64,000 bases of DNA from Thermoplasmata archaeon. GTDB lineage: Archaea > Thermoplasmatota > SW-10-69-26 > JACQPN01 > JAJPHT01. Position 1 is the stretch's first letter. The number at the start of each line of letters is the position of its first letter. The translations under genes and the position numbers were made by a program. The stretch is from the NCBI GenBank assembly GCA_034667685.1, contig JAXDQU010000089.1:21072-85071 (forward strand), in the 5' to 3' direction. This document shows positions 29,173 to 45,814 of the stretch, piece after piece. Below the pieces are notes generated by a model that was not told where the DNA came from, made no database searches, and saw nothing but the letters and a program-made list of their open reading frames with translations.

Positions 29173-29676
29173 GTGCCGACCGCCGATGCCCACGCTCCAA
29201 GCCCCGAGGACGTGCGCGATGCCGCGCAGCGCCTCTTGGCGCGCCGTCACGCGCAGCGCGCGCGCCCCACGTTCGGCGACGAGGCCGACGCCGCGCTGCT
29301 CGCGGCCCTGCGCGCGCGCCCCGACGAGGCGCAGGCGCGCGAGGCGGGCCTCCGCGTCGGGCGCGAGGTCTACGCGCGCCGCTGCTACGAGGACAACGTG
29401 CCCGGCGCCGTCGCGATCCTCTCCACGACGCTCCTGGCCTCGGGCCTGGGCTCCGTCTCCGTCGAGTCCTGGTTCCATCGCCAGGGCGTGCTCGCGTTCC
29501 GCCCGCTCGACGAGCGCGACGCGGCCGCGGCCTCCTCCTACGTCTCGGGGCTCCTCGCGGGATATCTCGGCGAGGCGCTGAATTGCCGCGCTGAGGCGCA
29601 GGCGCAGCCCGGGGCGCGCTTCGCGGTGCGCCTGCTCGAAGGGCGCGACGTCAACCACGGGAGGGCCGCCGCGTGA
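29173..29676 (+). CDS. Hypothetical protein, V4R-like
   Basis: First gene of a translationally coupled operon. AGLRVG...SGLG...YVSGLLAGYL resembles the V4R pattern. Confidence 0.55.
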   Translation: MPTADAHAPSPEDVRDAAQRLLARRHAQRARPTFGDEADAALLAALRARPDEAQAREAGLRVGREVYARRCYEDNVPGAVAILSTTLLASGLGSVSVESWFHRQGVLAFRPLDERDAAAASSYVSGLLAGYLGEALNCRAEAQAQPGARFAVRLLEGRDVNHGRAAA

Positions 29677-30047
29677 TGGACCACGCCTCGCGCGTCGACG
29701 TCGCCCTCGCCGACCTGCTCAAGCACGAGGGCCTCACCGGCGCCTCGCTGATCAGCCGCGACGGGCTCTGCGTGCGCGCCGCGGGACGCTCGGAGGTCTC
29801 GCGGGAGACCTTCAGCGCGATGAGCGCGACCCTCATGGGCGCCGCCGAGATCGCGCTGCGCGAGCTGGACAACGCGCCCGCGCGGTCCATCGTCGCGGCC
29901 ACGCCGAGCGCCTGCATCATCATCGTGGGAGCCTCGCGCGAGATGCTCCTCGTCGCCTCGGCCCGCGCGGACGTCCCGCTCGCGCCGCTCGTCGCGCGCG
30001 TCGAGGAGGCGGCGCGCGGCCTGGCCAAGATCCTCTCGGGTGCCTGA
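29676..30047 (+). CDS. Roadblock/LC7 (MglB-like) protein
   Basis: GLTGASLISRDGL...ETFSAMSATLMGAAEIALREL. Confidence 0.85.
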   Translation: MDHASRVDVALADLLKHEGLTGASLISRDGLCVRAAGRSEVSRETFSAMSATLMGAAEIALRELDNAPARSIVAATPSACIIIVGASREMLLVASARADVPLAPLVARVEEAARGLAKILSGA

Positions 30048-31225
30048 TGTCGAGCGTGGAGGCGGTGGGGGTCCCCCAGCTGGAGCGGCTCATCTGCCCC
30101 ATGCCCGAGCACAGCTCCGTCCTCTTCGTCAACGATCCGGGCGTCGAGGCCGAGGCGTTCCTCTACCAGGGCGCCTACGCGCACCTCTCCGCGGGCCGGC
30201 GCGTCGTCTACGCCGTGACCAACCGCGCGCCCGAGAGCGTGCTCGCCGCGATGTCGGCGCTGGGGCTCGACGTCTTCAGCCACAAGGAGCAGCTCATCTT
30301 CGTCGACGCGTTCGCCGCGCACATGGCGCAGCCCTCCAGCGCGCAGCACGTCGTGCAGCAGCCCTCGAACCCGCTCGACTTCGCCCGCACGCTGGAGGCC
30401 GCCGCGCGCGAGGCGCCCGACGCGATGCTCGTGGTGGACGGGCTCTCGACGCTCGTCGACCAGGCCGGCCCCGAGAAGTTCGAGGCCGCCTGGCCGCGCA
30501 TCCAGGGCGCCATGGCGCGCTTCCGCTGGTCCGAGTCGCTCTTCACGAAGTGGCCCTACGGCGAGGGCGTCATGCGCCTCCTCGACGACTTCGACGCGGT
30601 GGTCACGCTCAAGGGCGTCGAGGACCGCATCACCATCTCGCAGTACTTCCGCGTCGAGCGCGCGCGCTGGCGCCCGGACGTCGACACGAAGCCCCGCCTC
30701 TACCGCGCGCTCAAGCCCGGCGGCGTCCACGTCTTCATCCCGAAGATCGTCATCACCGGCCCCTACAACGCGGGCAAATCCTCCTTCGTGCACGCCGTCT
30801 CCGACACCGCGGTCTCGGTGGACGAGCTGGGCACGACCGTCGCGCTCGACCACGGCCGCGTCACCATGGAAGGCCTCACCGCCGACATCTTCGGCACGCC
30901 CGGCCAGTCGCGCTTCGACCCGATCCTGCGCGTCGTCGCGGGCCAGGCGCTGGGCGTCGTCGTCGTGGTCGACAGCACGAAGCCCGAGTCGTTCGCGCGC
31001 GCCGCCGAGATGATGGCGCTCACGTGGAAGCAGGGCCTCCCCGGCGTCGTCGCGGCCAACAAGCAGGACCTTCCGGGAGCGCTCTCCCCCGAGGAGATCG
31101 CGAAGACGATGACCATCCCCAAGGGCATCCGCGTCGTGCCGTGCAGCGGCCAGGACCGCGAGAGCGCGCGGCGCGTGCTGCGCGAGCTGATCGACCTCAT
31201 CCTCGCCCACGTGGTGAGCGCGTGA
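30047..31225 (+). CDS. Fusion of a degenerate KaiC/RecA-like domain and a small GTPase (MglA/Arf-like)
   Basis: The N-half has DPGVEAE in place of Walker A, plus LIFVDAF and VVDGLS. The C-half has G1 GPYNAGKSS, G2 TTVALD, G3 GTPGQ and G4 NKQD. Confidence 0.85.
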   Translation: MSSVEAVGVPQLERLICPMPEHSSVLFVNDPGVEAEAFLYQGAYAHLSAGRRVVYAVTNRAPESVLAAMSALGLDVFSHKEQLIFVDAFAAHMAQPSSAQHVVQQPSNPLDFARTLEAAAREAPDAMLVVDGLSTLVDQAGPEKFEAAWPRIQGAMARFRWSESLFTKWPYGEGVMRLLDDFDAVVTLKGVEDRITISQYFRVERARWRPDVDTKPRLYRALKPGGVHVFIPKIVITGPYNAGKSSFVHAVSDTAVSVDELGTTVALDHGRVTMEGLTADIFGTPGQSRFDPILRVVAGQALGVVVVVDSTKPESFARAAEMMALTWKQGLPGVVAANKQDLPGALSPEEIAKTMTIPKGIRVVPCSGQDRESARRVLRELIDLILAHVVSA

Positions 31226-32016
31226 TGAGCGGAGCCGGCGCCGGGCCGGGCCTCGGCCCCAGCGCGACGAGCCCGGGCGGCGCGCCCGCCCCCAAGGTCG
31301 AGACCGGCGTGCGGCGCCTCGACGACCTGCTCGAAGGCGGCGTGCCTCCGACCAGCGTCACGCTGCTGTACGGCCCGCCCTTCCTCGGGAAGGAATTGCT
31401 ATCGCGCCTCTTCCTGCTCCAGGGGCTGCGCCAGGGCGTGCCCGGCATCCTCGTCCTCACGGGGCAGGCGACCAGCGACGCGCGCGCCCAGCTCGCGCAG
31501 ATCGACCCCGCGTACCCCGGGTACGAGCGCCAGGGGCTCATCTGCTTCGTCGACACGTACAGCAAGTCGATCGGCGCGGAGGACGACTTCGCGCAGGCCG
31601 AGTACGTGGACGGCCCCGTCAACCTCAACGCGGTCAGCCTCGCGGTCAACAACGCGCAGCGCCGCATCATCGCCGAGCACGCGACGCACCGGCTCGTCTA
31701 CGACAGCGTCTCGACGACGACCACGTACACCAACGCGCAGACGACGTTCCGCTTCCTCCAGGTGCTCGTGGGCAAGGCCAAGCGCGCGGGCGCGACCACG
31801 ATGCTCCTGCTCGACCAGGGCATGCACACGGACGCCGAGGTGCAGACGTTCAAGCACCTCAGCGACGGCATGATCGAGGTGCGCGCCGAGGGCACGAGCA
31901 ACTTCCTGCAGGTGGCCGGCATCGGCGTCACGGAGAACCGCGGCTGGGTCGAGTACCGCTTCACCGAACGTTTGTTCGACGTGACAGGCTCGTTCTCGGC
32001 CGGGCGGATTCGCTGA
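31225..32016 (+). CDS. KaiC/RAD55-like ATPase, single domain
   Basis: TGVRRLDDLLEGGVP, LLYGPPFLGKE, FVDTYS, LVYDSVS, HLSDGMIE. Confidence 0.85.
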   Translation: MSGAGAGPGLGPSATSPGGAPAPKVETGVRRLDDLLEGGVPPTSVTLLYGPPFLGKELLSRLFLLQGLRQGVPGILVLTGQATSDARAQLAQIDPAYPGYERQGLICFVDTYSKSIGAEDDFAQAEYVDGPVNLNAVSLAVNNAQRRIIAEHATHRLVYDSVSTTTTYTNAQTTFRFLQVLVGKAKRAGATTMLLLDQGMHTDAEVQTFKHLSDGMIEVRAEGTSNFLQVAGIGVTENRGWVEYRFTERLFDVTGSFSAGRIR

Positions 32017-32023
32017 TTCTTCT

Positions 32024-32184
32024 GGGCAAGGGCACGGGCAAGTCCCATCCCGACGCTGTTTGCCGGCGCGCTCATTTCCCAACACCGCGCATCCGAGGCA
32101 TCCGCGGATTCCGGGATTCTCGGTGTTGGGAAGGGAGCGCCACGAAGACGAGCACGGTGGAGGAACTTGCCCTTGCCCGTGCCC
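32024..32184. repeat. Nested imperfect hairpin with GGGCAC/GGGCAA 6-nt units between convergent genes
   Basis: Outer arms gggcaagggcacgggcaagt / acttgcccttgcccgtgccc, inner arms ttcccaacaccg / cggtgttgggaa. Confidence 0.75.
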
Positions 32185-32189: not shown

Positions 32190-33401
32190 CTACAGGAAGC
32201 CCAAGCCCAGGATCGCGATCGCGACGAGGATCGCGGAGTGCTTGAGCCCGGCCTGGAAGTTGCCCTCGCTCATCACGCCCACGACCATGCCGCTGCCCAG
32301 CGCCTGCACGAGGCCGACGCCGAAGTAGACGTAGCGGAAGTCGGTGAGCGTCATCTGGTGGCTCACCAGGAGGCCGCCGCCCGCGAGGTTGCCGCCGATC
32401 TGGCTGGTGCTGGTGAGCACGCTGGGGATCAGGAGGCCCTGGAGCGCCGCGGTGACGGCGAGGAAGACGCCGAACGCGACGTAGACGACGATGACGTAGA
32501 GGCGCATCGCGGCGCGGCGCTCGGCCTCCACGGCCTTCAGCTCGCGCGCGTCGCGGGCCGCCGCTGATAGCACGTCCTTGACGTTGCCGCCGGCCTGCGT
32601 GGCCTTGATCATGAGCGCGACGGAGCGCGTGACGAGGGGCGTGCCGACGCGCTCGGCGAACATGCGCAGCGCGTCCTGGAAGGGCGTGCCCCAGCTGACC
32701 TGGTGCGCCATGCGGCGGACCTCGTCGTTGAGGCGGCCGTAGTCGCCGCGCGCCGCGACGCGGATCGCCTGCGCCATCGTCATGCCCGCGTTGTGCGACT
32801 CGTTGAGGTCGCGCAGGAAGTCGGGGAAGCGGTCCTCGATCTGCTGGATGTTGCGGTCGCGGACGAAGCTGAAGTAGGCCGTGGGCGCGCAGGCGAGCAG
32901 GATCGCGACGCCCGAGAGCAGCGGCGCCGTCATCGGGCGCGTGGCGGTGGAGAAGGCGCGGTCGAACGCGCCGCCCCAGACGAGGAACGAGAGCCCGACC
33001 ACGACGACGGCGAGCGGGATCGTGATCAGGAGCGTCGTGATCTCGGCGGCCGCGGCGCGGTTGTCGAGGCCGAGGCTGCGCGCGCGCTCGTAGAGCCTGG
33101 GCGCGCGCGAGGCGACCAGCGCGGCCATCGCCATCGTGGTGGCGGCGCCGATGAAGAGGAGCGAGAGGTCCCAGGGCGTGTGCGCGCCGCGGCTCGGGTT
33201 CGTGAGGATGCCCACGCGCACGAGCACGACGATCGCGATCAGGAGCGCGGGGATCAGGCCCAGGAAGAGGTAGACGGTGCGCGCGGTGCCCGTGGGGCGC
33301 GTGGGCTGCGGCGCCTGCTCGACGGCCTCGCGCACGAAGGGCGGAAGCGGCTGCACGGGCAGCTCGCGATCATCGTGGTGGATCGGGGGGATCGAGGTCA
33401 A
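32190..33401 (-). CDS. Type IV pilus/T2SS-F membrane platform protein (TadC/ArlJ-like)
   Basis: IEDRFPDFLRDL...AGMTMAQAI...YGRL...SWGTPFQDAL...AGGNVKDVL...GLKH. Confidence 0.9.
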   Translation of the reverse strand: MTSIPPIHHDDRELPVQPLPPFVREAVEQAPQPTRPTGTARTVYLFLGLIPALLIAIVVLVRVGILTNPSRGAHTPWDLSLLFIGAATTMAMAALVASRAPRLYERARSLGLDNRAAAAEITTLLITIPLAVVVVGLSFLVWGGAFDRAFSTATRPMTAPLLSGVAILLACAPTAYFSFVRDRNIQQIEDRFPDFLRDLNESHNAGMTMAQAIRVAARGDYGRLNDEVRRMAHQVSWGTPFQDALRMFAERVGTPLVTRSVALMIKATQAGGNVKDVLSAAARDARELKAVEAERRAAMRLYVIVVYVAFGVFLAVTAALQGLLIPSVLTSTSQIGGNLAGGGLLVSHQMTLTDFRYVYFGVGLVQALGSGMVVGVMSEGNFQAGLKHSAILVAIAILGLGFL

Positions 33402-33404: not shown

Positions 33405-34301
33405 TCACCCCTCCGGGGCCATGTTCTTGAGCACCCACGAGAACGCGCCGTGCGTGAGCGGCAGGAGCAGGAAGACGAGCAGGAAGAGGAACGTCTGCGA
33501 CGTGCCCGTGGAGCGGCCCACGACGAGCATGATGCTGAGCATGACGAGCATGAAGAGCGGGCCCGCGATGACGACCGTCACGTAGGATTCCGCGAGCACG
33601 CCGAGCCCTTCGAGGAACTCGCGCTGCACGCGGCGGTTCTCCGTCATGTACTGCTCGGCCTTGCTCGCGAAGTAGGCCTTGAGGTCGCCCCCCGAGAGGA
33701 TCGTGGTCTTGGCGCCCTGCAGGAACTCCTGGAAGCGCAGGCTGGGCGAGCGCCCGATCGCGCGGCTGATGGCGGTGACGAGGTCGATGCCGAGGAGGTC
33801 CACGTCGCGCACCATCCACGCGACCTCCTTCGCCACCTCGCCGTAGGTCGTCTCGCGCGCGAGGTCGCGCAGCAGCACGGTGGGCACGACGCCCGCGCTC
33901 GACATCGCGGCGATGAAGTTCACCGCGTAGGGGAGGTCGCTGTCGATGCGGCGGCGCCGCTCGCCCGCGCGGTAGTCCGGATAGACCTGCAGCCCGACGT
34001 AGGTGGAGCCCGCGAGCATCACGGGCAGGATGATCATGACCGCGGCGATCGCCGTGCTGGGCGGGCCCGACGCGACGGCCGTGAGCCCGAAGAGGAGGAA
34101 GACGAGCACGTAGCCGCCCACGAGCACGAGCAGCGTCGCGAGCCACGTGAGCGCGACGAACGCCTCGGGCAGCATCGCGATGTGCGCCTGCTCCAGCGAG
34201 AAGCGGAGCTTGTCGGCGCGCGCCGCGCTGCGCCGGGCCGGGGCGCCGAAGAGCGCGAGCGCGACCCGGACGAAGCCGTCGGCGTTGCTCTCACGAGGCA
34301 A
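33405..34301 (-). CDS. Second T2SS-F membrane platform protein (TadB/TadC-like)
   Basis: IDSDLPYAVNFIAAMSSAG...YGEVAKE...GIDLVTAI...SPS...SGGDL...LAESYV. TTG start with a GAGGTG RBS. Confidence 0.88.
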   Translation of the reverse strand: MPRESNADGFVRVALALFGAPARRSAARADKLRFSLEQAHIAMLPEAFVALTWLATLLVLVGGYVLVFLLFGLTAVASGPPSTAIAAVMIILPVMLAGSTYVGLQVYPDYRAGERRRRIDSDLPYAVNFIAAMSSAGVVPTVLLRDLARETTYGEVAKEVAWMVRDVDLLGIDLVTAISRAIGRSPSLRFQEFLQGAKTTILSGGDLKAYFASKAEQYMTENRRVQREFLEGLGVLAESYVTVVIAGPLFMLVMLSIMLVVGRSTGTSQTFLFLLVFLLLPLTHGAFSWVLKNMAPEG

Positions 34302-36066
34302 CCGGGGCCACCTCGAGGTCGCGCAGCGTGCGCGCGGCGTCGATCGCGTAGCCGTTGATGACGCGCGACACGCTCGCGATGTCGCGGATGCGCTTCTCCT
34401 TGAGCAGGAGCAGGATGCGGACGCGGCGGTCGAACTCGGCGCGCAGCGCGGCCTCGGCCAGGTGGCGCTCCTCCGCGACCTCGCCGAGCACGAAGGACGC
34501 GCCCGAGTAGCGGAAGCGCCCCTCGTTGCCGTCCCAGTAGAACGCGCGGTTGGTGAGCAATTCGCCCGTGCGCGGGTCGGCGCCGGTGAGCTCGACGATC
34601 TCGCGCATCTTGCGCACGCGCCCCGTGGGCAGGCGCAGGTCGGCCTGGATCGCGATGATATCAAGCGAGGCGAGCATGTTGCGCGGGATCTCGATGGGCT
34701 TCGACTCCAGGCGGTGGACGGCGCTGGGCACCGAGTCCGCGTGCATGGTGCTGAACACCGTGTGGCCCGTCGCCATCGCCTGGAAGAGCACGTACGCCTC
34801 GGCGCCGCGCACCTCGCCCAGCAGGATGTACTCGGGGCGCTGGCGCAGGCTCGCCTTGAGCAGGTCGAACATGTCGACCTCGCCCGCGCGCTTGCCTGCG
34901 TGGTCCGCGCCGCCGCCCGCGCGCGTGACGCCGGGGATCCAGTTCTCGTGGACGAGGTTCAGCTCGCGCGTGTCCTCGATGCTCACGATCTTCTTCTGCG
35001 GCGGAATGAACAGGGACAACGCATTCAGGGTTGTGGTCTTGCCCGACGCCGTGCCGCCGCAGACGAGCGCGCTGGCGCCGTGCTCGACGGCGAGCCAGAA
35101 GTACGCCATCATCTCGGGGCTCATCGTCTCGTAGATCAGGAGGTCCGTCGGCGTGAGTGGGTCGCTGCGGAACCGGCGGATGGTGAACGTGCTGCCGCGC
35201 GTCGTGACCTCGCGCGAGAGCGAGGCCTGGAGGCGCGAGCCGTCGGGGAGCGTCGCGTCCACGAGCGGATCGGCCACGCTGATGTGCTTGCCCGAGCGCT
35301 GCACGAGCTGCATGACGAAGCCGTCGAGCGCGTCGTCGTTGGGGAAGACGACGTTGGTGCGGATGCTCTCGTAGCGCCGGTGGTAGAGGAAGACGGGGAG
35401 CTTCGCGCCGTCGCAGGAGATGTCCTCGATGTTCGGGTCCTGCATGAGGACGTCCAGGCGGCCGTAGCCGAGGAAGTCGCGCTCCAGGTAGTAGGCGACG
35501 CGCGCCCGCGAGAGCGGACCCAGGTGCACCTTGTGGCGCTTGGCGAGCGCGTCGAAGCGGTCGGCCAGGTAGGCGCGCGCGCCGCGGCGGTCGAGCGCGT
35601 CGATGTCGACGTCGAGCGTGCGCAGGAAGGCGTCGCGCACGAAGTCGAACGCCTCCTGCTCCTCGGCCGTCATCTGCGGCTCGAAGACCTCGTAGCGGTA
35701 GGCGTTGGTCAGCTCGTCGTACGCGATGCGCACGTAGCTGTACGGGGGGCGGATCGGGCGCAGCTCCACGACGCGCTCGTGCGGCGCGGGGGGCGGGATC
35801 GCCGTGACCTCGCGCTCCTCGAACTGGACCTCGGGCTCGGGCTCCTCGCCGCGCAGGCGCGCCACGAAGCCGCGGAATCCCCTGGGCGCCTTGGCCGCGG
35901 GGTGAGGCGCATCGGGCACCGGCGCAAGCTCCGAGAGCGGCGTGGGCGCGGGCGCGCCGAAGAGGATGGACTCCAGCTCCCGGTCGTCGGTGGGCGCATC
36001 GCCCGGGGGCGGATCGACCTTGGGGGACGACTTGCGGAAACCCCCCGGGATCTTGGAAGCGCTCAC
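34291..36066 (-). CDS. Type IV pilus assembly ATPase (PilB/ArlI/VirB11 family)
   Basis: GYGRLDVLMQDPNIEDISCDG, GSTFTIRRF, GGTASGKTT, IEDTREL, LRQRPEYILLGEVRG, TGH, STMHA. Confidence 0.93.
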   Translation of the reverse strand: MSASKIPGGFRKSSPKVDPPPGDAPTDDRELESILFGAPAPTPLSELAPVPDAPHPAAKAPRGFRGFVARLRGEEPEPEVQFEEREVTAIPPPAPHERVVELRPIRPPYSYVRIAYDELTNAYRYEVFEPQMTAEEQEAFDFVRDAFLRTLDVDIDALDRRGARAYLADRFDALAKRHKVHLGPLSRARVAYYLERDFLGYGRLDVLMQDPNIEDISCDGAKLPVFLYHRRYESIRTNVVFPNDDALDGFVMQLVQRSGKHISVADPLVDATLPDGSRLQASLSREVTTRGSTFTIRRFRSDPLTPTDLLIYETMSPEMMAYFWLAVEHGASALVCGGTASGKTTTLNALSLFIPPQKKIVSIEDTRELNLVHENWIPGVTRAGGGADHAGKRAGEVDMFDLLKASLRQRPEYILLGEVRGAEAYVLFQAMATGHTVFSTMHADSVPSAVHRLESKPIEIPRNMLASLDIIAIQADLRLPTGRVRKMREIVELTGADPRTGELLTNRAFYWDGNEGRFRYSGASFVLGEVAEERHLAEAALRAEFDRRVRILLLLKEKRIRDIASVSRVINGYAIDAARTLRDLEVAPVAS

Positions 36067-36220
36067 GGGATCAACTCGATTCCGCGGTTTGGCGCTATAT
36101 AACCCTGGCGAAGGCGCACAGCGGCCAAACCGCCGCGGTCCGCGGGTCGGGCGGAGAAGACATTCGGCGGTCACGTTTCGATTGATATACGTGCCCCCGA
36201 CAGACCTGCCGCGTCCAGGA

Positions 36221-39200
36221 ATGCCGCGCCAAGGCCACCGTCTGCGTCATGGGCAAGCCGCCTCCGAGACCACGGGCACGATCCTGCTCCTGGCGATCGC
36301 GGTCGCGCTCGCGGGCGTCTTCGCGCTGGCGATCTTCAACCTCCCGCCGCCCCTGCCCTCCTCGCACGCGACGCTCCAGGCGTTCACGCCGCCCGCGTCC
36401 GACCAGTTGGTCATCGAGCACCGCGGCGGCCCCGCCATCCCGCTGGGCTCGCTCACCGCGGCGGTGCGCGTCAACGGCACGCTCACGCAGTTCAACGTGG
36501 GCGCCGGCATCACGAGCGGCACGTGGACCGTGCTCGCGCCCAACGGCACGGCCAAGGCCGCGGGCGACAGCTTCTCGGCGGGCGACCAGGCGATCTACAC
36601 CGCGCCCGCGCTGTGGGGCGCCGACGCGAGCGTGCAGGTCGTCAACGGCGCGACGACGGGCGGCCTGGGCGCCGCGCTGGCCCTCGCTCCAACGACCGTG
36701 CAGGCGAAGGACAATGCGAAGCCCACGTTCGTCTCGGCGCGCACGCTCACCACCACGACGATCCAGGTCAACTTCACGGAGCCCATCCGCAACCTCACGG
36801 ACCCGGCCTCCGTCGTCATCAGCCCGCTGGACTTCACCGTGCAGAACGCGGGCATCACGTACACGGTGACGGCCGTTCGCCTCTTGGCGAACGGCTCGTC
36901 CGCGGAGATGACCTTGGCGAGCGCGATGCCCACGAGCGCGACGCCCTACGTCAACGCGACCGCCTCGCCCGCGTGGACCTCCGACCTCGCGGGGAACCCG
37001 CTCAACGCCACCGCCTCGGTGGTGGCCTCGGACGGCGTGGCGCCTGGCATCACCAGCGTCGCGGCGAGCAGCGTCTCGGTCGCGGGCGCCACCATCACGT
37101 GGACCACCGACGAGCCCGCCGCCACGAGCCTCGTCGACGTGGGCCCGACGCCCGGCCTGGGCATCGTCGTCTCGGCGCCCTCGGGCGGCACGTCGCACAG
37201 CGCCACGCTCTCGACGCTCTCCGACAACCAGCTCTACGACTTCGAGGTCGTCTCGACGGACGCCAACGGCAACGCCGCGGCCTCCTCGATCCTCAGCTTC
37301 ACCACCTCGGCGTTCCCGGCCTCCACCGGCGGCGCCACCGGGTCGAACCGGCTCTCGCTCTCCTCGGGCGTCTCGCTCTCCTCGGGCGTCCTCTCGACCG
37401 CGCTCACCGTCACGCTGAAGGACCCCAACGGCACCGCCCTCAACGCGACGGGCAACACCGTGGTCAACCTCGCCACCAACAGCACGTCGGGCTCGTTCTT
37501 CTCCGACCCCACGGGCGCCACGCCCGTCACGAGCGTCACGATCCTCGCGGGCCAGAGCGCCGCGACCTTCTACTACCGCGACTACCGCGACGCGGGCACC
37601 TCGGCGCTCACCGCGGAGTCGGAGGGCGTGATCCCCGCCTCGACGCTCGCGCAGGTCTCGCTCAACAGCGGCCGCACCTTCGCCTACCACCTGACGTTCA
37701 GCGCGCTCCCCGCCATGCCCATCGCCAACGGCGCGGACGTGTCGGGCTTCACCGTCGCCCTGCGCGACGTCTTCGACCAGCCCGTCGTGCCCCCGTGGAC
37801 CATGACGGTGAACCTGAGCACGAACAGCACGGTGGGCTACTTCACCGACACGGGCGGGAGCGTCATCTCCTCCTTGTCCTTGTCGAGCAGCAGCGCCTCG
37901 TTCAAGTACCACGACGGGCGCGGCGGCGCGGCCCTCGTCATGGCGTTCGCCAACGGCACGCAGCCCGCGGCCGCGCAGGTGAGCGTCTCGGGCAGCAGCC
38001 AGGTCTTCGGCCTGCTATCAAGCGCGCAGACGTGGACCGGCCTCAACACGTACGGCGCGGGTCTGCTCAACGTCACGAACCTCGCCACGCCCAACGGCAC
38101 GCTGCTCCTGCCCAGCGGCAACGGCACGCTCATGGATCTCGGCGGCGCGCAGACCGTGACGGGCAACAAGACGTTCGCCTCGGGCACGCTGCGCGCGGCC
38201 GACCTCTACGACGCCAACGGCAAGGCGATCCTCAACCTCAGCGCGACCGCGAACGCCATCGACGGCCTGACGATCACCGACGCCGCGAGCGGCGGCACCG
38301 TGACGATCGGCGCCTCGGGCGGAGACGCCAACGTCCCGCTCAACCTGGCGAGCAAGGGAAGCGGTGCGCTCCAGCTCAACGGCCAGGCGATCGCGCTGGG
38401 CGGCTCGTTCACGACCACGGGCGCCAACGCGCTCACGTTCGCGACGACGGGCACGACCAGCGTCACACTCCCCACGAGCGGCACGCTGCTCTCCACCGCC
38501 GGCGCGGTCCCGATCCACGACCTCGTGGTGGGAAGCGGCGCCGCGACGCTCAACGTGCTCGCGCCCAGCGCCACCAGCGGCGTGCCTCTCGTGAGCCAAG
38601 GCAGCAGCGCGGACCCGACGTTCGGCGCGATCAACCTCGGCTCCGCGAGCGCGGTCACCGGCACGCTCGCGTACAGCCACCTCGCGCTCACCGGCGCGAT
38701 CCAACCCTCCGACCTCTCCGCGGCCGTCAACGGCTCGTTCCTCGTCAACGCGAGCAACAGCATCCCGACCGCGGACCTCCAGGACGCCTCCGTCACCGCC
38801 GCCAAGCTCGCGGGCTCGATCCCCTACAGCAAGCTCTCGTTGGCGGGCAGCATCCAGCCCTCGGACCTCTCGGCGGCCGTGAACGGCTCGTTCATCCTCA
38901 ACCAGAACGCGCAGGTGCTCACGGGCCACCTCGCCGCCGCCAGCGTCACGGCGGAGAAACTCAACCTCAACGCGAGCAGCATCGCGTACGGCAAGCTCGC
39001 GCTGACGGGGAACGTCGTGAACGGCGACCTCGCGGCCAACACGATCGCGTTCAGCAAGCTCGCGCGCACGGGCACGTCCGGCCAGGCGCTCCTCTCGGGC
39101 GGCGCGGGCGCGGACGCCGCCTACGGCGCGCTCAACCTCGCAGGGGGAAGCAGCATCGTGACCGGCACGCTCCCCGTGGGCAACGGCGGCACCGGCGCGA

Positions 39201-40150
39201 CCTCGTTCACGACCAACGGCGTCGTGCTGGGCGGCGCGACGCTCTCCACCACCGCGGCAGGCGCGGCGAACCAAGTCCTGCGCATCCCCTCGGGCGGCGG
39301 CGCGCCCGCGTTCGGGGCCATCGACGTGTCACAGAGCGCCGCCGTCACCGGCACGCTGGCGATCGCGAACGGCGGCACGGGCCTGACGAGCGCGGGCGGC
39401 ACGGCGAACCGCGTCCTCGTCACGACCGACGGCACCACGTGGACCGCGGGCCAGGTCAACCTCAACTCCGCCATGGTCAGCGGCAGCATCGGCCCCACCA
39501 CCGGCGGCACGGGCCAATCGACCTACACGCTGGGCGACACGCTCTACGCGAGCGCCGCGAACACGCTCGCGAAGCTCCCGGGCAACACCGCGTCCACCAA
39601 GATGTTCCTCTCGCAGACCGGCACGGGCGCGGTCAGCGCCGCGCCCTCGTGGAGCGCGCTCGCGGCCGGCGACATCCCGAGCCTCGACGCCTCCAAGATC
39701 ACGACGGGCACGTTCGCGGACGCGCGCCTTTCCAGCAACGTCGCGCTGCTCAACGCCGCCAACTCGTGGACCGCGGTGCAGACGTTCACGCTCGGCATGC
39801 GTCTCACGCCCACCGCGAGCGCCTCGATCCCCACGTGCACGGCGGGCCTGGAAGGCTCGCTCTACTACGACAGCACGCTCCACGCGCTGCGCATCTGCGG
39901 CCAAGGCTCGGCGTCCCTGCTGCTCCCCGCGTCGGACGGGACGAGGCTGATCAACCACGTCTTCCCCGCCACGGGCACCTCCGAGACCATCAGCGTCAGC
40001 CAGCCCGACACGAGCTACGGCGTCGTGTGCCAGCCGCAATACGCGGCAAGCCAGAACCCGATCATCAGCGGCAAGACCACGACGAGCTTCGTCATCACGT
40101 ATGGCAACGGTGGCCGCAGCGGCACCGCGGACTGCTTCATCTTCCGGTGA
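36221..40150 (+). CDS. Giant type IV pilin-like adhesin (1309 aa) with Ig/Fn3-like domains and tail-fibre-like repeats
   Basis: Class III-like signal (HGQA/ASETTGTILLLAIAVAL) and the archaeal pilin motif IEHRGG. Fn3-like ATITWTTDEPA. Repeats GTLxxxNGGTG and LDASKITTGTF. Confidence 0.75.
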   Translation: MPRQGHRLRHGQAASETTGTILLLAIAVALAGVFALAIFNLPPPLPSSHATLQAFTPPASDQLVIEHRGGPAIPLGSLTAAVRVNGTLTQFNVGAGITSGTWTVLAPNGTAKAAGDSFSAGDQAIYTAPALWGADASVQVVNGATTGGLGAALALAPTTVQAKDNAKPTFVSARTLTTTTIQVNFTEPIRNLTDPASVVISPLDFTVQNAGITYTVTAVRLLANGSSAEMTLASAMPTSATPYVNATASPAWTSDLAGNPLNATASVVASDGVAPGITSVAASSVSVAGATITWTTDEPAATSLVDVGPTPGLGIVVSAPSGGTSHSATLSTLSDNQLYDFEVVSTDANGNAAASSILSFTTSAFPASTGGATGSNRLSLSSGVSLSSGVLSTALTVTLKDPNGTALNATGNTVVNLATNSTSGSFFSDPTGATPVTSVTILAGQSAATFYYRDYRDAGTSALTAESEGVIPASTLAQVSLNSGRTFAYHLTFSALPAMPIANGADVSGFTVALRDVFDQPVVPPWTMTVNLSTNSTVGYFTDTGGSVISSLSLSSSSASFKYHDGRGGAALVMAFANGTQPAAAQVSVSGSSQVFGLLSSAQTWTGLNTYGAGLLNVTNLATPNGTLLLPSGNGTLMDLGGAQTVTGNKTFASGTLRAADLYDANGKAILNLSATANAIDGLTITDAASGGTVTIGASGGDANVPLNLASKGSGALQLNGQAIALGGSFTTTGANALTFATTGTTSVTLPTSGTLLSTAGAVPIHDLVVGSGAATLNVLAPSATSGVPLVSQGSSADPTFGAINLGSASAVTGTLAYSHLALTGAIQPSDLSAAVNGSFLVNASNSIPTADLQDASVTAAKLAGSIPYSKLSLAGSIQPSDLSAAVNGSFILNQNAQVLTGHLAAASVTAEKLNLNASSIAYGKLALTGNVVNGDLAANTIAFSKLARTGTSGQALLSGGAGADAAYGALNLAGGSSIVTGTLPVGNGGTGATSFTTNGVVLGGATLSTTAAGAANQVLRIPSGGGAPAFGAIDVSQSAAVTGTLAIANGGTGLTSAGGTANRVLVTTDGTTWTAGQVNLNSAMVSGSIGPTTGGTGQSTYTLGDTLYASAANTLAKLPGNTASTKMFLSQTGTGAVSAAPSWSALAAGDIPSLDASKITTGTFADARLSSNVALLNAANSWTAVQTFTLGMRLTPTASASIPTCTAGLEGSLYYDSTLHALRICGQGSASLLLPASDGTRLINHVFPATGTSETISVSQPDTSYGVVCQPQYAASQNPIISGKTTTSFVITYGNGGRSGTADCFIFR

Positions 40151-40154: not shown

Positions 40155-41021
40155 ATGCGGCGCGCGAACGATCGGGCGGCGGCGGGCGTCGTGGCGGCCA
40201 TCATCATGCTGGGCGCCATCGTGGCGTTCCTGGTCTACATGAACGCGACGTGGGTCCCCGCGTGGGTCGAGTCGAAGGAGTCGAGCCACGCCGCGGACGT
40301 GGGCGACGCCATGGCGACGTGGGCCATCGACGCGGAGGACCACGCGGCGCGCGACCAGGTGGGCTCCCGGTGGAGCGTGACCGCGCCCCTGGGCGTCTCG
40401 GGGCTTCCGATGCTCGGGACGGGCGCCTCGTCGGGCGAGATCTCGCTGGCGACGACGCCGACGCTCAACGTCTCGCAGAGGAGCCTCCCAGTCCTGCTCG
40501 CGGGCGGGGGCGTGTCGCTCACCACGCACACGCTGCGCTATCCCAACCAGACGATCACGTACGCGCTGGGCGCGCTGCAGGTGGACCAGAGCGATGGCTC
40601 GTGGGTGGACCTGCGCAGCCTCGTCTCGGCCTCGCGCGCGGCGAGCGGCACGATCTCGCTCGCGATCCAGGCCGCGAACGTCACGGGGGGCCCGCAGCAG
40701 GCGGGCGGCAACGGGAACGCGCTCGTCGCGGGCACGCTCACCGGCGTCACGAACCAGACGCACGCCGCGGGCAACGTGACGATCCAGGCGCAGGGCGTCG
40801 ACGCGGGCGCGTGGCGCGCGGCGCTCAACCGGACGCTCGTGGCCTCCGGCCTGCGCGGCGAGGGCGCCTTCCGGGCCGACTGCCAGGGCTTCGTCTCGGC
40901 GAAGGACTTCTGCTACACGGCCGGCAACAACACGGCCAGCCAAGTCGAGGTCGTCCTGTACAACGTCGGGAGCGGCTGGACCACGCAGGTCGCGGCGTTC
41001 GCCACCGAGGTTCGTTCGTAG
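40155..41021 (+). CDS. Pilin-like protein (minor pilin)
   Basis: MRRANDRA/AAGVVAAIIMLGAIVAFL class III-like signal, followed by VPAWVESKESSH. Confidence 0.7.
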   Translation: MRRANDRAAAGVVAAIIMLGAIVAFLVYMNATWVPAWVESKESSHAADVGDAMATWAIDAEDHAARDQVGSRWSVTAPLGVSGLPMLGTGASSGEISLATTPTLNVSQRSLPVLLAGGGVSLTTHTLRYPNQTITYALGALQVDQSDGSWVDLRSLVSASRAASGTISLAIQAANVTGGPQQAGGNGNALVAGTLTGVTNQTHAAGNVTIQAQGVDAGAWRAALNRTLVASGLRGEGAFRADCQGFVSAKDFCYTAGNNTASQVEVVLYNVGSGWTTQVAAFATEVRS

Positions 41022-43198: not shown

Positions 43199-43315
43199 TC
43201 CGGCCCGCGCCGACGCGCGCGTGGTCCGTCCAGCGCGGGTCGAGAGGGGTTCGGGAAATCCCCAACCGTGAAGCACCCCTTATCCTCCTTCCCGCCTTCA
43301 TCCGGGCCTGAGAGC

Positions 43316-45016
43316 ATGCGCGTCCTCCCCTTCGCGATCGTCCTCGTCCTCTTCGCGACCGCCGTCGTCCCCGCCATCCCCCGCGCCTGGGCGGCCGGCG
43401 GCGAGCGCTACGCCGTCTCCGGCGTGGTCCTGTCGGACGCCGGCGAGCCGCTGGCGAAGGCGCAGGTGAGCGCCTACGTCTCCGCCGACGGCTACGGGGC
43501 CAACGACCAGACCGTGACCGACGAGACGGGCGCCTACACGCTCTCGCTCCCGGCGGGGCAAGGGAACGTCAACGTCTACTACGCGCCCTGGCGCGCATCC
43601 GCCGGGCGCGACGTCACGGTCTCGGCCAACCTGACCGGCGTCGACTTCAAGCTCGTCACGCCGCCCCCCAAGACGGCCATCGTCGAGGGGCGCGTGCTCG
43701 GCCCCGACGGCGCGCCCGTCGAAGGCGCGACCGTGTCGCTGGGCTACGCGTGCTGCATCGCGTACGCCACGGCCACGCCGGCGCCCACCACCGCGGAGAG
43801 CGACAGCGCGAGCAGCGGCACGACCTCGGCGATGCCGATCCGCGCGCCCGGCCCCTACTATGGCGACTTCCCCGACCCCGTGACCACCGGCGCGGACGGC
43901 GCGTACCGCTTCGCCACCTACGGCGGAAGCTATCAGATGACCGCGTGGGCCAAGGGCTTCGCGCAGACGACGCAGACCGTCGAGGCCAAGGACAACGAGA
44001 CCGTGAAGCAGGACGTCAAGCTGGAGCGCGTGCCGGCCGCCGATGCGATCGTCGAGGGCAAGGTCGTCGACGCCAGGACGGGCCTGCCCGTCGCCAACGC
44101 GCAGGTCTACGTCTCCAACCTCGCCTGGAGCCGCAGCAACTTCACGACCACCGACGAGAAGGGCGCGTTCCGCGTCGCCACGCTGCCGGGCTGGTCGCAG
44201 ATCACCATCAGCGCCGAGGCCAACCGCCTCGTGCCCGAGCCGATGGCGACGGACGACAAGATCGTCGCGCGCCCCCTCCCCGCGCCCGGCGGCGAGGCCG
44301 GCCCCGCCTACTATCAGTATCAGCACGCGCTGAGCCTCGTCCCGGGCTCCAACCCGGTCGACGTGAAGCTCGCGCCCAAGCCCGCGCCCAGCGTGGCGCT
44401 CGTGGGCTACGTCGTGGACCACGACGCGAAGACCGGCGTGGCCAGCGCGTGGGTCAACGTCTGGAACCAGGACGCGGGCGAGTGGGGCAACGCGCAGACC
44501 GACGCGACGGGCTCCTACAAGATCCTCGTGCGCCCCGGCCACTACACGATCAACGCCTACGCCGACGGCTACCTCGGCGGCGCCGAGTCGTTCGTCCTCG
44601 GCGCGGACCCGAGCCAGGCGCGGCAGGACGTCCAGGTCGTCAAGGGCGCGCCGCGCTACGCCCCCTGCGACGAAGGGTGCGGCGGGCCCATCATGTACGA
44701 GAAGGGCATCGCCGCCTCGTCCGCCCCGGACGCCGCGCCCGCCACGGCCCCGACGGCCGCGTCCCCCTCGCCGGCCTCGGCGCGCGACGCCGCGAGCGCC
44801 GCGCCCACCGCGGGCGGCGCGTCGGGCGCGTCGAGCTCGGGCGCGCAGGCCTACAGCGGCACCGGCGGCGGCCTCCCGCCCTACAGCGAGAGCGCGGCGG
44901 GCACGCCCACGCCCACCGGCGAGGCGGGCGCCACGAAGCCCGCGCCCGGCCCCGCGCTGGCGCTCCTCGTGGGCGCGGTCGCCTTGGCGGCCCTCGCCGC
45001 GCGTCGGCGCCGCTAG
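43316..45016 (+). CDS. Cell-surface protein with carboxypeptidase-regulatory-like (beta-sandwich) repeats and an archaeosortase-type C-terminal anchor
   Basis: Signal peptide, four repeats of GxVxxxxGxPxxxAxV...TDxxGxY, Ala/Ser/Pro-rich linker, and PGPALALLVGAVALAALAARRRR. Confidence 0.8.
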   Translation: MRVLPFAIVLVLFATAVVPAIPRAWAAGGERYAVSGVVLSDAGEPLAKAQVSAYVSADGYGANDQTVTDETGAYTLSLPAGQGNVNVYYAPWRASAGRDVTVSANLTGVDFKLVTPPPKTAIVEGRVLGPDGAPVEGATVSLGYACCIAYATATPAPTTAESDSASSGTTSAMPIRAPGPYYGDFPDPVTTGADGAYRFATYGGSYQMTAWAKGFAQTTQTVEAKDNETVKQDVKLERVPAADAIVEGKVVDARTGLPVANAQVYVSNLAWSRSNFTTTDEKGAFRVATLPGWSQITISAEANRLVPEPMATDDKIVARPLPAPGGEAGPAYYQYQHALSLVPGSNPVDVKLAPKPAPSVALVGYVVDHDAKTGVASAWVNVWNQDAGEWGNAQTDATGSYKILVRPGHYTINAYADGYLGGAESFVLGADPSQARQDVQVVKGAPRYAPCDEGCGGPIMYEKGIAASSAPDAAPATAPTAASPSPASARDAASAAPTAGGASGASSSGAQAYSGTGGGLPPYSESAAGTPTPTGEAGATKPAPGPALALLVGAVALAALAARRRR

Positions 45017-45180
45017 GAGCCTATCCCGAAACCTGCGCGGCAGGCGAGGCCGACGAGGCGGGGGTGGATGCGAGGCGCGCGATCCCGAAGGAATCGCAGC
45101 GCGCTTTCGAGGCGTCGCGCAACGAAGCAGACGCCCCCGCATCGTCGGCCGCAGCCCCGCGCAGGTTTCGGGATAGGCTC
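45017..45180. mobile_element. MITE-like element, 164 bp, with perfect 24-bp terminal inverted repeats
   Basis: GAGCCTATCCCGAAACCTGCGCGG ... CCGCGCAGGTTTCGGGATAGGCTC, starting right after a TAG stop, with no coding capacity. Confidence 0.65.
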
Positions 45181-45355
45181 CAAGCCGAAAAATCAAGCAA
45201 GGCTCATACGAGGATCCCGCGCTGATTCCGCCAGATGGGATGCACCAGCGAAGCCAGGTTCAGCGTGCGGGGAGCCTTGCTCCTGCGCGAGGAACGGACG
45301 TACCAACGAGGCCATTTGGCGACCGAGACGCTGGTCGTGGAGCGCCTGCCCTGAT

Positions 45356-45673
45356 CTAGGGAAGAACGGGCGGCCCCTGCGTCGGGTCGGGGACCTGCTG
45401 GCCCACCGACTGCGTCGTGGAGCCCACGAGCGTCGAGAAGACATTGGGCACGCATTGCGCCGGGTCGATCATCACGGCGTAGGATCGGCCGCCGTCCACG
45501 TACTCCGTGACGACGAAGCCGACCTCGCTGTCCAGCGACGGGGTGACGCCGGTCTGGCCGTCGGGCGGGGCCGAGTCCACGTTGACGCACTGCGCCGGCG
45601 AGGCGCCCGCGAGGGGCGCGACGGACACGCCCAGGATCATCAGGATGAGCGCGGCGCGCGCGAGAGCAGACAG
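45356..45673 (-). CDS. Small secreted protein (2 Cys), divergent from the membrane regulator
   Basis: LSALARAALILMILGVSVAPLAGA leader. GGAGG lies 7 nt before a CTG at 45673, so the start is uncertain (an ATG lies at 45640). Confidence 0.5.
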   Translation of the reverse strand: MSALARAALILMILGVSVAPLAGASPAQCVNVDSAPPDGQTGVTPSLDSEVGFVVTEYVDGGRSYAVMIDPAQCVPNVFSTLVGSTTQSVGQQVPDPTQGPPVLP

Positions 45674-45814
45674 GAGATGGCCTCCGGACCCGGAGCCCTG
45701 TGCCGAAATGATAAGGCTTGTCGTGGGGGCGTTCGCCGGCGCGGAAGGGATCGGCCGCGACCGAAGACCTTGGACGACAAAGCTTATGGCGGCCTCCACG
45801 GAAGTCGGCGCGTC

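Follow-up and report, generated by a model that had tools for sequence, protein, structure and literature searches.

A putative modular type IV pilin of a Thermoplasmata archaeon that may carry an acquired trimeric adhesin fibre

How does the chromosome of an archaeon come to encode a protein that begins as a pilin and ends as a fibre of the kind found on phage tails? The question is raised by a gene in a 64,000-nucleotide stretch of DNA (the window) from a Thermoplasmata archaeon (contig JAXDQU010000089.1 of assembly GCA_034667685.1), for which the initial annotation had proposed a captured viral receptor-binding fibre displayed on a pilus. Our best reading, to which we assign a probability of about 0.7, is a modular type IV pilin bearing a horizontally acquired trimeric adhesin fibre. 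The data suggest a borrowed gripping device on the pilus machine of this soil archaeon, the outer half of the protein resembling the three-stranded fibres with which tailed phages and predatory bacteria take hold of other cells.

The gene (36221-40150, + strand, as are all its parts described below) is a single intact open frame which starts with ATG at 36221 and specifies 1309 amino acids. Third-position GC across the longest open frame (35942-40150) is 0.95, like that of the other genes in the window, and GC content is in line with the genome. An assembly chimera was ruled out: contigs from a second soil-metagenome run (X2) agree without a single difference over 34758-36903 and 37314-40124, the latter spanning the Ig domains, shaft and tip in one piece. 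The pilin-plus-shaft architecture is found in two further proteins, P0007 and P0010. Every motif quoted in the initial annotation was located in the protein by script: IEHRGG (residue 65), IQPSDLSAAVNGSF (two copies, residues 827 and 878), DASVTAAKLA (855), GTLPVGNGGTG (982), GTLAIANGGTG (1044), IGPTTGGTGQSTYTLGDTLYAS (1090), DIPSLDASKITTGTFADARL (1151), DTSYGV (1263) and KTTTSFVI (1285). Two details required correction. The cysteine module is present with the spacing C-x4-EG-x-LYYD-x8-C (C1206 to C1226), not x7; and the YSKL repeat, reported three times, occurs in the strict form [YF][SG]KLxLxGx[IV]xxxDL only twice (residues 869 and 923), the third copy in the translation being the variant YSHLALTGAIQPSDL. 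The duplication is visible in the DNA as 112-nt direct repeats (38638-38749 and 38791-38902) which are 73% identical and 153 nt (51 codons) apart.

The protein opens with a class III (prepilin-type) signal and hydrophobic N-terminal helix (36221..36340), recognized from the translation and the start of the Pilin_N match. The leader is basic (MPRQGHRLRHGQ), and about 24 hydrophobic residues follow the cleavage region, which is predicted from the sequence to be QA|ASETTG. The pattern A/G | [VIA]-S-[PDE]-x-[VI]-[GA] is found in the 11 other Pilin_N ORFs of the genome too, and P0007 and P0010 both keep AASET.GTILLL unchanged. At -2 of the predicted site stands Q, where most pilins of the genome carry D, E or another residue. 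The match to Pfam Pilin_N (PF07790; residues 12-86, 36254..36478) includes the EHRGG motif and lies over the cut-off (E=7e-9; 36.9 bits against 25.2). The pilin globular part (residues ~41-165, 36341..36715, its boundary set by eye from the alignment) is the best-conserved region of the protein, being 69-77% identical to P0007. The description of the N-terminus as an archaeal pilin is supported by the Pilin_N score, a predicted cleavage region that fits those of the other 11 pilin-like ORFs, and the adjoining PilB/PilC genes.

Four beta-rich domains follow. Two spacers (36716..37315) comprise residues 166-275, for which no family match was found, and an Fn3-like domain (~276-365); they precede two tandem Ig-like domains with an NSTxGYF signature (residues ~375-482 and 483-592; 37343..37996). 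The earlier assignment of Ig/Fn3-like domains holds in the relatives, where the Pur_ac_phosph_N/fn3 domain exceeds the Pfam cut-off (34.0 bits in P0007 and 31.4 in P0010), and falls short in our protein (Pur_ac_phosph_N, 21.4 bits against 30; fn3, 15 against 25). The NSTxGYF unit is repeated many times in two sister pilins, P0142 and a protein of genome G002. Two weak relatives, P0144 and P0147, carry accessions of Big_1 / Invasin_D3 in the precomputed Pfam column.

The fibre shaft has two parts. The proximal shaft (residues ~596-950, 38006..39070), with its 51-residue tandem duplication and Y[SG][KH]L.L.G....DL repeats, is homologous to the long fibre proteins P0004, P0116, P0087 and P0053. 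The distal shaft (residues 951-1175, 39071..39745) contains three GGTG units and DIPSLDASKITTGTFADARL; no other module is shared so widely, each of its 25-residue blocks being covered by 40-102 of the 120 matches listed. Residues 620-1309 are matched by 235 proteins at E<=1e-3; among the 120 listed, only two (P0007 and P0010) have the pilin end in common. A scan of 16 matches revealed ends of the Peptidase_S74 (three), Gly_rich_2 (two) and C1q (one) families, Phage_fiber_2 in one, and two pilin relatives. Residues ~596-1175 are homologous to the fibre shafts of bacterial proteins with such tips. The matches named by organism (7 of the 120 listed) are all bacterial cellular proteins. A Bdellovibrio protein, P0116, matches ours (E=2.4e-14) and also Bd2133 (PDB 8OND; E=9.8e-10); since it aligns with residues 720-1090 only, and with Bd2133 in a neighbouring part of its own sequence, the link between our protein and Bd2133 is indirect.

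The shaft also has matches on uncultivated viral contigs. Among 602 candidate stretches in IMG/VR, 113 code for proteins related to residues 1040-1175, and the viral-contig proteins have the GGTG units with 35-83% identity over the best segment. Two of the seven carrier proteins examined (L014 and L017) match tail-fibre PHROGs and one (L022) a tail-spike PHROG, and some of the genes next to the carriers match tail or virion PHROGs. Residues 1127-1232, including the DIPSLDASKITTGTFADARL stretch, align to solved chains named 'Tail fiber protein' (PDB 6CL6, E=0.0014; 6CL5, E=0.002), ALAAGDIPSLDASKITTGTFADARL pairing with ALAATDIPGLDASKLVSGVLAEQRL; these we take to be R-type pyocin fibres. The recognition of DIPSLDASK as a fibre motif, and of the C-terminal half as fibre-type, agrees with this alignment and with the homologies to tipped bacterial fibres and viral-contig proteins. 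A tblastn search of 50,697 deposited phage genomes with residues 601-1309 returned no match, and a PHROGs search with the protein itself no fibre family. Foldseek, which had been proposed as a check, found nothing in the PDB at E<=0.001; the model behind the BFVD matches is of low confidence, and these matches, with TM-scores of 0.16-0.22, probably reflect sequence.

The shaft is followed by a cysteine module (residues 1176-1232, 39746..39916; NSWTAVQTF...P.C-x4-EG-x-LYYD-x8-C) which recurs in other fibre-like proteins; it is present in five copies in P0130 and sits mid-fibre in P0003, P0005 and P0082. The terminal domain (residues 1233-1309, 39917..40147), containing Cys1270 and Cys1305, is an orphan. 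Residues 1276-1309 are covered by none of the 120 matches listed, and a search of 1.84 billion representatives with the terminal region yielded only eight proteins at E<=0.001, six with their best stretches in the cysteine module and two multi-Fn3 proteins matching residues ~1228-1284. AF2 predicts beta strands with low confidence, and a language-model feature search of the tip listed viral clusters only, with scores (0.84-0.87) in the range below 0.9 in which matches are leads only. By analogy the terminal domain is presumed to be the ligand-binding tip; as no recognizable binding fold was found in it, adhesion is argued by analogy only.

The trimer prediction called for by the initial annotation was run on residues 977-1232 (39149..39916), and three copies pass the homotrimer test as an intertwined assembly with an ipSAE of 0.83 (runs 0.83, 0.85 and 0.77), the best of three controls reaching 0.02; the run used a noisy custom alignment, three copies fall outside the calibration of the tool, and a pass can reflect likeness to solved fibres. 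Of proteins solved as pairs, 20 of 30 attained that ipSAE mark, as did 1 of 23 solved as single chains. Partner pLDDT is 93-94, with ~965 interface contacts and at least 96% contact agreement between runs. The same residue of two chains is in contact at positions 26, 44, 90 and 154, as is expected on a three-fold axis. Modelled as a monomer, the segment has a mean pLDDT of only 55. What was found is a C-terminal half with fibre homologs, of which residues 977-1232 model as a trimer rather than as monomeric Ig or beta-helix domains, behind a predicted prepilin cleavage site.

The gene lies in the archaeal chromosome, head-to-head with a PilB-like secretion ATPase gene (T2SSE; 34291..36174, - strand; Pfam E=7.9e-35), the true start of which is probably downstream of the longest-ORF start, and two PilC/TadC-like platform genes (T2SSF; 32190-33401 and 33405 to ~34300, - strand; E=8.9e-23 and 6.9e-11); the longest ORF of the second reaches 34664, overlapping pilB. 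Five nt past the stop of the fibre gene begins a pilin-like DUF7289 gene (40155..41021, +; 288 aa with a hydrophobic N-terminus; E=4.6e-7, 30.1 bits, cut-off 27), a probable operon partner. A congeneric genome (L001) has the fibre gene, DUF7289 and pilB/pilC in the same order, the last three being 73%, 81% and 79% identical, respectively, and a KaiC-like gene as well. In the window, Pfam identified genes for Roadblock/LC7 (29673-30047, +), a KaiC-like domain fused to a Ras-like GTPase (30047-31225, +) and a KaiC/FlaH-like ATPase (31222-32016, +), which beside a pilus locus are likely regulatory; KaiC-family ATPases are described as known associates of archaeal type IV pilus loci (PMC4858521). 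The other neighbouring ORFs scanned are housekeeping genes and an rRNA operon. The genome has one Peptidase_A24 gene and, in all, six T2SSE matches. In a paralogous locus, on contig C104, an ATPase is accompanied by an ~800-aa modular pilin bearing other domains and by a DUF7289-like match below cut-off; the plan of a pilin with a grafted module thus recurs in this genome.

A search of 401 genomes of the phylum located the shaft in two, both members of one genus. The pilin stalk (residues 1-600) has a long match in four other genomes, 21 having been searched in the class; in G002, G006 and P0142 the distal part consists of Ig repeats or another domain, with no fibre. The fibre gene and its L001 counterpart share 53% identity over residues 1-988, past which no alignment is possible, compared with the 73-81% of its neighbours. 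Segment identities to P0007, the closest relative, run, from N- to C-terminus, 77, 69, 59, 56, 60, 62, 53, 27, 62, 16 and 6%. These comparisons suggest that the fibre part was brought into the archaeal phylum, with bacteria or their phages as donors, and that, by exchange or divergence, it changes much more quickly than the pilin anchor. The capture of a specifically viral fibre is not established: a virus may have been the source, yet the matches named by organism are bacterial and the deposited phage genomes gave none.

In the mechanism we propose, residues 1-165 (prepilin-type signal and pilin module) would bear four bead-like beta domains (166-592) as a stalk, on to which a shaft of ~580 residues of the phage tail-fibre or Bdellovibrio MAT type has been grafted, terminating in the small cysteine-containing module and the orphan domain. 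The leader would be cut by the A24 prepilin peptidase of the genome, and the N-terminal helix pulled from the membrane by the adjacent PilB ATPase and PilC platform. The C-terminal halves of three copies would join in one intertwined homotrimeric fibre, standing at the tip of a filament of the genome's small major pilins, much as is predicted for the homotrimeric minor pilin CofB, or straight on the cell surface. The variable tip would bind a ligand outside the cell, the likeliest being a glycan or protein on the surface of another cell or particle. Processing, incorporation into and display on a pilus, a trimeric state for the remaining shaft, adhesion, ligand and donor are what we infer from homology and context.

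The most serious competitor, to which we would give something like one chance in five, is a membrane-anchored surface fibre that uses the class III signal for export and processing only. The N-terminal helices of the three chains would remain in the membrane or form a short stub, with the fibre projecting like those of Bdellovibrio, a parallel to archaeal surface proteins that have prepilin-type signals and no long filaments. The trimer model is equally compatible with it; the locus has no small major-pilin gene, its pilin-like genes being the fibre gene and DUF7289 only; an extension as bulky as 1140 residues would be hard to pack in a filament body; and MAT fibres are surface-displayed without a pilus (PMC10769870). 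Yet six near-identical small major-pilin genes are present, all on other contigs, and the congeneric genome keeps the pairing with a PilB dedicated to it, both PilC genes and another pilin-like gene. The conservation of the pilin globular domain above all other parts suggests specific contacts, and CofB offers a precedent, being a modular minor pilin that forms a trimer and is predicted to sit at the tip of its pilus (PMC8179133).

We regard as improbable a monomeric adhesin, of beta-helix or Ig type, for which the trimer prediction would be an artefact arising from resemblance to solved fibres. The trimer score is the model's own confidence and may owe a pass to memory, and the beta domains of the N-terminal 600 residues are of an ordinary monomer type; against this stand the fall in pLDDT from trimer to monomer, the very large interface with its same-residue contacts, and the relatives whose last module, the Peptidase_S74 chaperone or C1q, is an obligate trimer. 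Least probable is a viral or proviral tail-fibre gene that merely happens to lie in the chromosome, with an incidental pilin match. The frequency of the shaft on viral contigs and in proteins matching tail-fibre PHROGs, and the viral leads for the tip, would fit such a gene, but a Pfam scan of 42 other ORFs of the window detected no family of capsid, terminase, portal, tail or integrase proteins, Pilin_N is conserved over cut-off in all three fusion proteins, pilB/pilC synteny is retained, and the GC content is that of the genome.

The modular pilin preferred here has partial counterparts elsewhere. Large class III-signal proteins of archaeal type IV pilus loci, predicted to be adhesins or minor pilins, adjoin secretion ATPase and TadC genes with KaiC-family ATPases near, as here (Makarova et al. 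2016; PMC4858521); the portions of that source used here mention no tail-fibre or trimeric-fibre module for them, and 'tail fib', 'modular' and 'fused' are absent from the main text, as available to us, of a 2026 survey of archaeal T4F systems (PMC13705601). Modular pilins are described as widespread in bacteria (PMC8179133). In PilB/PilC of Streptococcus sanguinis and CofB of the ETEC type IVb pilus an N-terminal pilin carries C-terminal functional modules, as in our protein; in CofB the pilin module is followed by a beta-repeat and a beta-sandwich domain, and the trimer that it forms is predicted to sit at the pilus tip, a location predicted for modular pilins from the bulk of their modules (PMC8179133). 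Bacterial pilin modules of the IPR012902 type are the basis of that survey (the word 'archaea' is absent from its main text as consulted), whereas our pilin module is of the archaeal Pilin_N type and the graft, at ~580 residues, is far longer than the modules described there.

The mosaic adhesive trimer (MAT) fibres of Bdellovibrio bacteriovorus, of which Bd2133 is one, are cellular rather than viral and are used for binding other cells; they show meandering trimerization, the cell-proximal end is conserved and the variable tips can be swapped, and some of the proteins lack the S74 chaperone (PMC10769870). The long Gly/Thr/Ala/Ser-rich shaft of the non-S74 subgroup is homologous to that of our protein, which, by contrast, belongs to an archaeon and has at its proximal end an archaeal pilin with four beta domains. 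Phage and tailocin tail fibres differ in their virion context and in attaching through a baseplate- or tail-binding domain instead of a pilin; they have in common with our protein the shaft module and the gradient from conserved anchor to variable tip.

The fusion is encoded by an unbroken 1309-amino acid ORF with an ATG start, located at positions 36221–40150 of the forward strand exactly as the initial annotation had placed it. The longest open frame around it (35942–40150) has a third-position G+C content of 0.95, and the A/T-rich sequence TTGATATA lies 32 nt 5’ of the ATG at 36221; this is possibly a TATA box, in which case the leader would be very short. All of the motifs quoted in that annotation were located in the protein, with two small corrections. 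The cysteine module is present but its spacing is C-x4-EG-x-LYYD-x8-C and not x7, and the YSKL-type repeat, counted there three times, occurs twice in its strict form and once as a YSHL variant. The protein repeats are visible at the DNA level as a 51-codon tandem duplication. Contigs from a second soil-metagenome run correspond to the window without a single difference across 34758–36903 and 37314–40124, and since the latter piece bridges the Ig domains, shaft and tip, an assembly chimera is excluded for the fusion. All 22 N-x-S/T sequons fall within residues 85–917. The distal shaft and tip (residues 918–1309) have none, which could reflect either a foreign origin or a binding end that needs to stay unglycosylated.

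The pilin module occupies residues 1–165. Pilin_N (PF07790) matched residues 12–86 over positions 1–77 of its 78-position profile with 36.9 bits (cut-off 25.2), and the curated cut-off was also exceeded in P0007 and P0010, the two relatives with an identical pilin-plus-shaft plan. The leader MPRQGHRLRHGQ is followed by A↓ASETTG (the arrow marks the putative cleavage site) and by 24 hydrophobic residues, an arrangement consistent with the host’s own pilins. The host genome contains 11 Pilin_N ORFs over the cut-off and one under it, with N-termini of the form small residue ↓ [V/I/A]-S-[P/D/E]-x-[V/I]-[G/A] preceding a hydrophobic helix. The FlaFind rule calls for a charged residue at position –2 of the cleavage site; the inferred cleavage region of the target, QA↓ASETTGTILLLAIAVALAGVFALAIF, has Q at this position. 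Because this residue is unusual, the class III signal is, on sequence grounds, graded as very likely and short of proven.

Four beta domains (residues 166–592) separate the pilin from the shaft. The first (residues 166–275) has no family match; the second is Fn3-like, falling under the Pfam cut-off in the target and over it in two relatives; and the third and fourth are Ig-like domains with the motif NSTxGYF, found in many copies in sister proteins. Searches with the whole protein gave no match in NCBIfam, none at E≤1 by phmmer against PDB sequences, and no fibre family in PHROGs, where the sole match was weak, of unknown function and in the N-terminal half.

The shaft (residues ca. 596–1175) is homologous to recognised fibre proteins, a relationship reached by several routes. 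With residues 620–1309 as query, 235 proteins were recovered at E≤1e-3. Among the 120 matches listed only P0007 and P0010 share the pilin end; the remainder are long proteins, and the seven named to organism are all bacterial. The most widely shared region of the query among the matches listed is residues ca. 950–1175. Pfam analysis of 16 matches, two of them the pilin relatives, revealed a C-terminal Peptidase_S74 domain, an intramolecular chaperone, in three, Gly_rich_2 in two, C1q in one and a Phage_fiber_2 repeat in another, and one match is labelled “tail fiber domain-containing” by its source. P0116, a Bdellovibrio relative annotated as a “beta strand repeat-containing protein”, is in turn similar to the solved MAT fibre Bd2133 (8OND; E=9.8e-10). 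In IMG/VR, relatives of residues 1040–1175 are encoded in 113 of 602 candidate stretches (single-protein query). Seven of the carriers on viral contigs were examined, of which two matched tail-fibre PHROGs, one a tail-spike PHROG and four no PHROG; some of the genes beside these carriers match tail or virion PHROGs. Lastly, residues 1127–1232 align with the PDB entries 6CL6 and 6CL5, each a “Tail fiber protein” (E=0.0014 and 0.002, respectively). This alignment passes through ALAAGDIPSLDASKITTGTFADARL, a motif that the initial annotation had associated with phage tail fibres and that now aligns to a solved fibre.

Peptidase_S74 (PF13884) gave no match in the target at E≤1, and since the C-terminus is an orphan domain we class the protein as of the non-S74 type. 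A tblastn search of residues 601–1309 against 50,697 deposited phage genomes gave no match, a result for which the low-complexity filter may have masked the Gly/Thr/Ala-rich sequence. The entry 9efk (“orf22”, E=5.4e-6), found with the profile of an alignment built in this analysis (A2), was discarded because the profile columns in that match trace to the N-terminal regions of rows other than the target.

The shaft is followed by a module with two cysteines (residues 1176–1232) which recurs in other fibre-like proteins, in one of them (P0130) five times, and in others in mid-fibre. The terminal ca. 77 residues (1233–1309) are effectively an orphan: a search of 1.84 billion representatives gave just eight proteins at E≤0.001, of which six match the cysteine module and two, multi-Fn3 proteins, match residues ca. 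1228–1284. Modelled alone in AF2 the tip has a mean pLDDT of 44.8. The ESM Atlas features of the tip, with top scores of 0.84–0.87 and viral clusters throughout, lie under the 0.9 level and are a lead only. From its position and variability we infer that the tip is the ligand-binding end.

Among 401 sampled genomes of the phylum two, both of the same genus, contain the shaft, and three pilin-fibre fusions were found in 5.8 billion clustered proteins. A long match to the pilin stalk (residues 1–600) occurs in four more of the 21 genomes searched in the class. Two of these (G002 and G006), like the sister pilin P0142, have Ig repeats or another domain in the distal part, with no fibre. Measured against the closest relative, P0007, identity declines from 77% in the pilin part through 53% in the proximal shaft and 16–27% over most of the distal shaft to ca. 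6% at the tip. The restricted distribution, the Ig-bearing sister pilins and this gradient together point to a fibre module that originated outside the phylum and was joined to a pre-existing modular pilin, after which the distal parts rapidly diverged or were exchanged. The donor of the shaft may have been either a bacterium or a phage. A third soil-metagenome run matches only a small share of the gene’s sequence words, which stem from a related strain; a single contig of that run (depth 3.4) departs from the window after 38666 and may carry a different distal shaft, which is too thin as evidence for tip swapping.

The gene adjoins a type IV pilus machine, with one T2SSE and two T2SSF genes: the PilB-like ATPase gene is divergent (head-to-head) from the pilin-fibre gene and the two PilC-like genes lie beyond it. 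The prepilin peptidase is encoded elsewhere in the genome, the one Peptidase_A24 match being on contig C76 (18.7 bits, or 29.1 counting in-frame neighbours; above the cut-off). Five nt past the stop of the pilin-fibre gene is the start of a DUF7289 gene, whose product has a hydrophobic, pilin-like N-terminus, and a histidine kinase gene is next. On the far side of the pilC genes (29673–32016, forward strand) are genes for a Roadblock/LC7 protein, a KaiC-like domain fused to a Ras-like GTPase, and a KaiC/FlaH-like ATPase. We take the Roadblock and GTPase pair to resemble MglB/MglA-type polarity switches. An association of KaiC-family ATPases with type IV pilus loci of archaea is already known (PMC4858521). 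Two ORFs on the reverse strand (31197–31670 and 31698–32075) are wrong-frame shadows of the KaiC-like gene on the forward strand, and a reading at 11665–12543 of the syntenic locus L001 was likewise discarded as wrong-frame.

L001, from a congeneric genome, has the same gene order as the window. Its neighbouring genes are 73–81% identical, and its pilin-fibre gene is 53% identical across residues 1–988, beyond which alignment is impossible. KaiC-like genes flank this locus too. Between its pilB and pilin-fibre genes (5169–7958, reverse strand) it encodes a 929-amino acid protein with six HYR domains which is missing from the window. The public record containing L001 bears the title of a Proteobacteria MAG. 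Its locus nevertheless has archaeal Pilin_N genes and the 73–81% identity to the window, and G009, a genome of the same genus, encodes the same protein; judging from these sequences the Proteobacteria label looks wrong.

No small major-pilin gene was found within the studied locus. Six near-identical Pilin_N genes of ca. 150 amino acids (MKANQKF...DDAVSPVIAVILMVAITVVLAATVYVWVSGFG) occur in two clusters, on contigs C71 (158–2157) and C98 (12429–13217), and probably specify the major pilins, unlinked to the locus. A paralogous locus on contig C104 (ca. 4800–12360, reverse strand) combines a T2SSE ATPase and a small pilin with a modular Pilin_N protein of ca. 800 amino acids, which carries other distal domains and no fibre, and with a sub-cut-off DUF7289-like match. 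The plan of a pilin with a grafted module has thus been used more than once in this genome.

The initial annotation had likened the distal half to phage fibres, and a trimer prediction, which it called for over residues ca. 600–1309, came out in favour of an intertwined homotrimer for residues 977–1232. Three copies of this segment (26-row alignment) gave an ipSAE of 0.83 (runs 0.83, 0.85 and 0.77; best control 0.02), a mark reached by 20 of 30 proteins solved as pairs and one of 23 solved as single chains, the present test with its own alignment and three copies being outside that calibration and its pass possibly an echo of likeness to solved fibres. In the model the partner pLDDT is 93–94, contact agreement between runs is at least 96%, and there are ca. 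965 interface contacts; the same residues of different chains touch at 26, 44, 90 and 154, as a three-fold axis would give. The model supports, short of proof, an obligate intertwined trimer, and a trimeric character would extend to the remaining shaft by homology. Modelled as an AF2 monomer, residues 977–1309 reach a mean pLDDT of 55.2 and have no Foldseek match in the PDB at E≤0.001. Four BFVD matches at this threshold, to uncultured tailed phages or unnamed entries, have TM-scores of 0.16–0.22 and are sequence echoes, not fold evidence. A monomeric adhesin, for which the Ig-like and Fn3-like domains of the N-terminal half might be cited, is unlikely beside these predictions.

A proviral gene is also unlikely. 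The shaft has relatives on viral contigs, as a virion tail fibre would; the setting, rather than lying amid virion or tail genes, is chromosomal, with a complete archaeal rRNA operon (16S, tRNA-Ala(TGC) in the spacer, 23S and 5S) at 48136–53230, which accounts for a dip to 56–61% in the window’s ca. 72% G+C. No virion family was found by Pfam scan among the 42 other ORFs of the window. The remaining genes are of the housekeeping type, e.g. an archaeal-type helicase, aRF1, ArgRS and glutamate dehydrogenase. The rRNA operon, these genes and the lack of virion-family ORFs identify the host as an archaeon, whose assembly comprises 124 contigs totalling 3.48 Mb at 99% completeness. The strongest alternative is a fibre anchored in the membrane, in which the pilin signal serves export only. 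A locus without a small major-pilin gene would sit comfortably with it, the adjoining PilB/PilC genes less so, and we consider it fairly unlikely. We favour, with a probability of roughly 0.7, a pilus or at least a machine-dependent fibre: the A24 peptidase would process the prepilin-type protein, the adjacent PilB/PilC machine would handle the product, the C-terminal halves of three copies would join into one fibre, and the variable tip would bind an external ligand. A more specific form of this reading is offered tentatively, as well short of an even prospect. Three modular pilins would cap a type IV filament with a trimeric, tip-swappable, phage-type receptor-binding fibre acquired from bacteria or their phages, whose distal shaft and tip are exchanged among strains. 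If true, a soil archaeon would gain programmable recognition of particular cells, be they partners, prey, kin or hosts. Tail fibres and the MAT fibres of Bdellovibrio would be analogous to such a device, the archaeal one differing in being extended by a pilus.

To our knowledge, modular pilins and cellular tail-fibre-like adhesins have each been known only in bacteria, and separately; the present protein unites them in an archaeon. Modular pilins, trimeric tip pilins, MAT fibres and the large signal-bearing proteins of archaeal type IV pilus loci have already been described. The minor pilin CofB is a bacterial precedent for a tip-capping trimer, and bulky modular pilins have been argued to fit at the pilus tip only (PMC8179133). 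MAT fibres are surface-displayed, meandering trimers whose proximal domain is constant and whose tips can be swapped, S74 being present or absent, and members of the strict family possess a conserved beta-rich N-terminal domain of ca. 130 amino acids right after a Sec signal peptide (PMC10769870). The target has Pilin_N at its N-terminus and the Bdellovibrio relative aligns with residues 720–1090 only; we therefore do not regard it as a strict member, and liken its working to that of a MAT fibre by analogy. We found no description of an archaeal pilin fused to a trimeric shaft of the tail-fibre type in the literature, including the main texts of surveys of archaeal type IV filaments (e.g. PMC4858521).

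Judging from the fusion, long trimeric fibres may be presented by the type IV filament machines of archaea, and a mosaic fibre toolkit common to phages and predatory bacteria may have crossed a domain boundary. Since the family is rare and has a clear pattern of conserved anchor and variable tip, it is a compact test case for reconciling a trimeric module with helical pilus assembly, for the attachment targets of uncultivated soil archaea, and for the movement of receptor-binding modules among viruses, bacteria and archaea.

Downstream of the locus, on the forward strand, are genes for a 582-amino acid protein with four CarboxypepD_reg repeats (43268–45016) and a 787-amino acid protein with HVO_0163-type and MarR-type HTH domains (45068–47431). 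Several more HVO_0163-type HTH proteins are encoded at 8449–12584.
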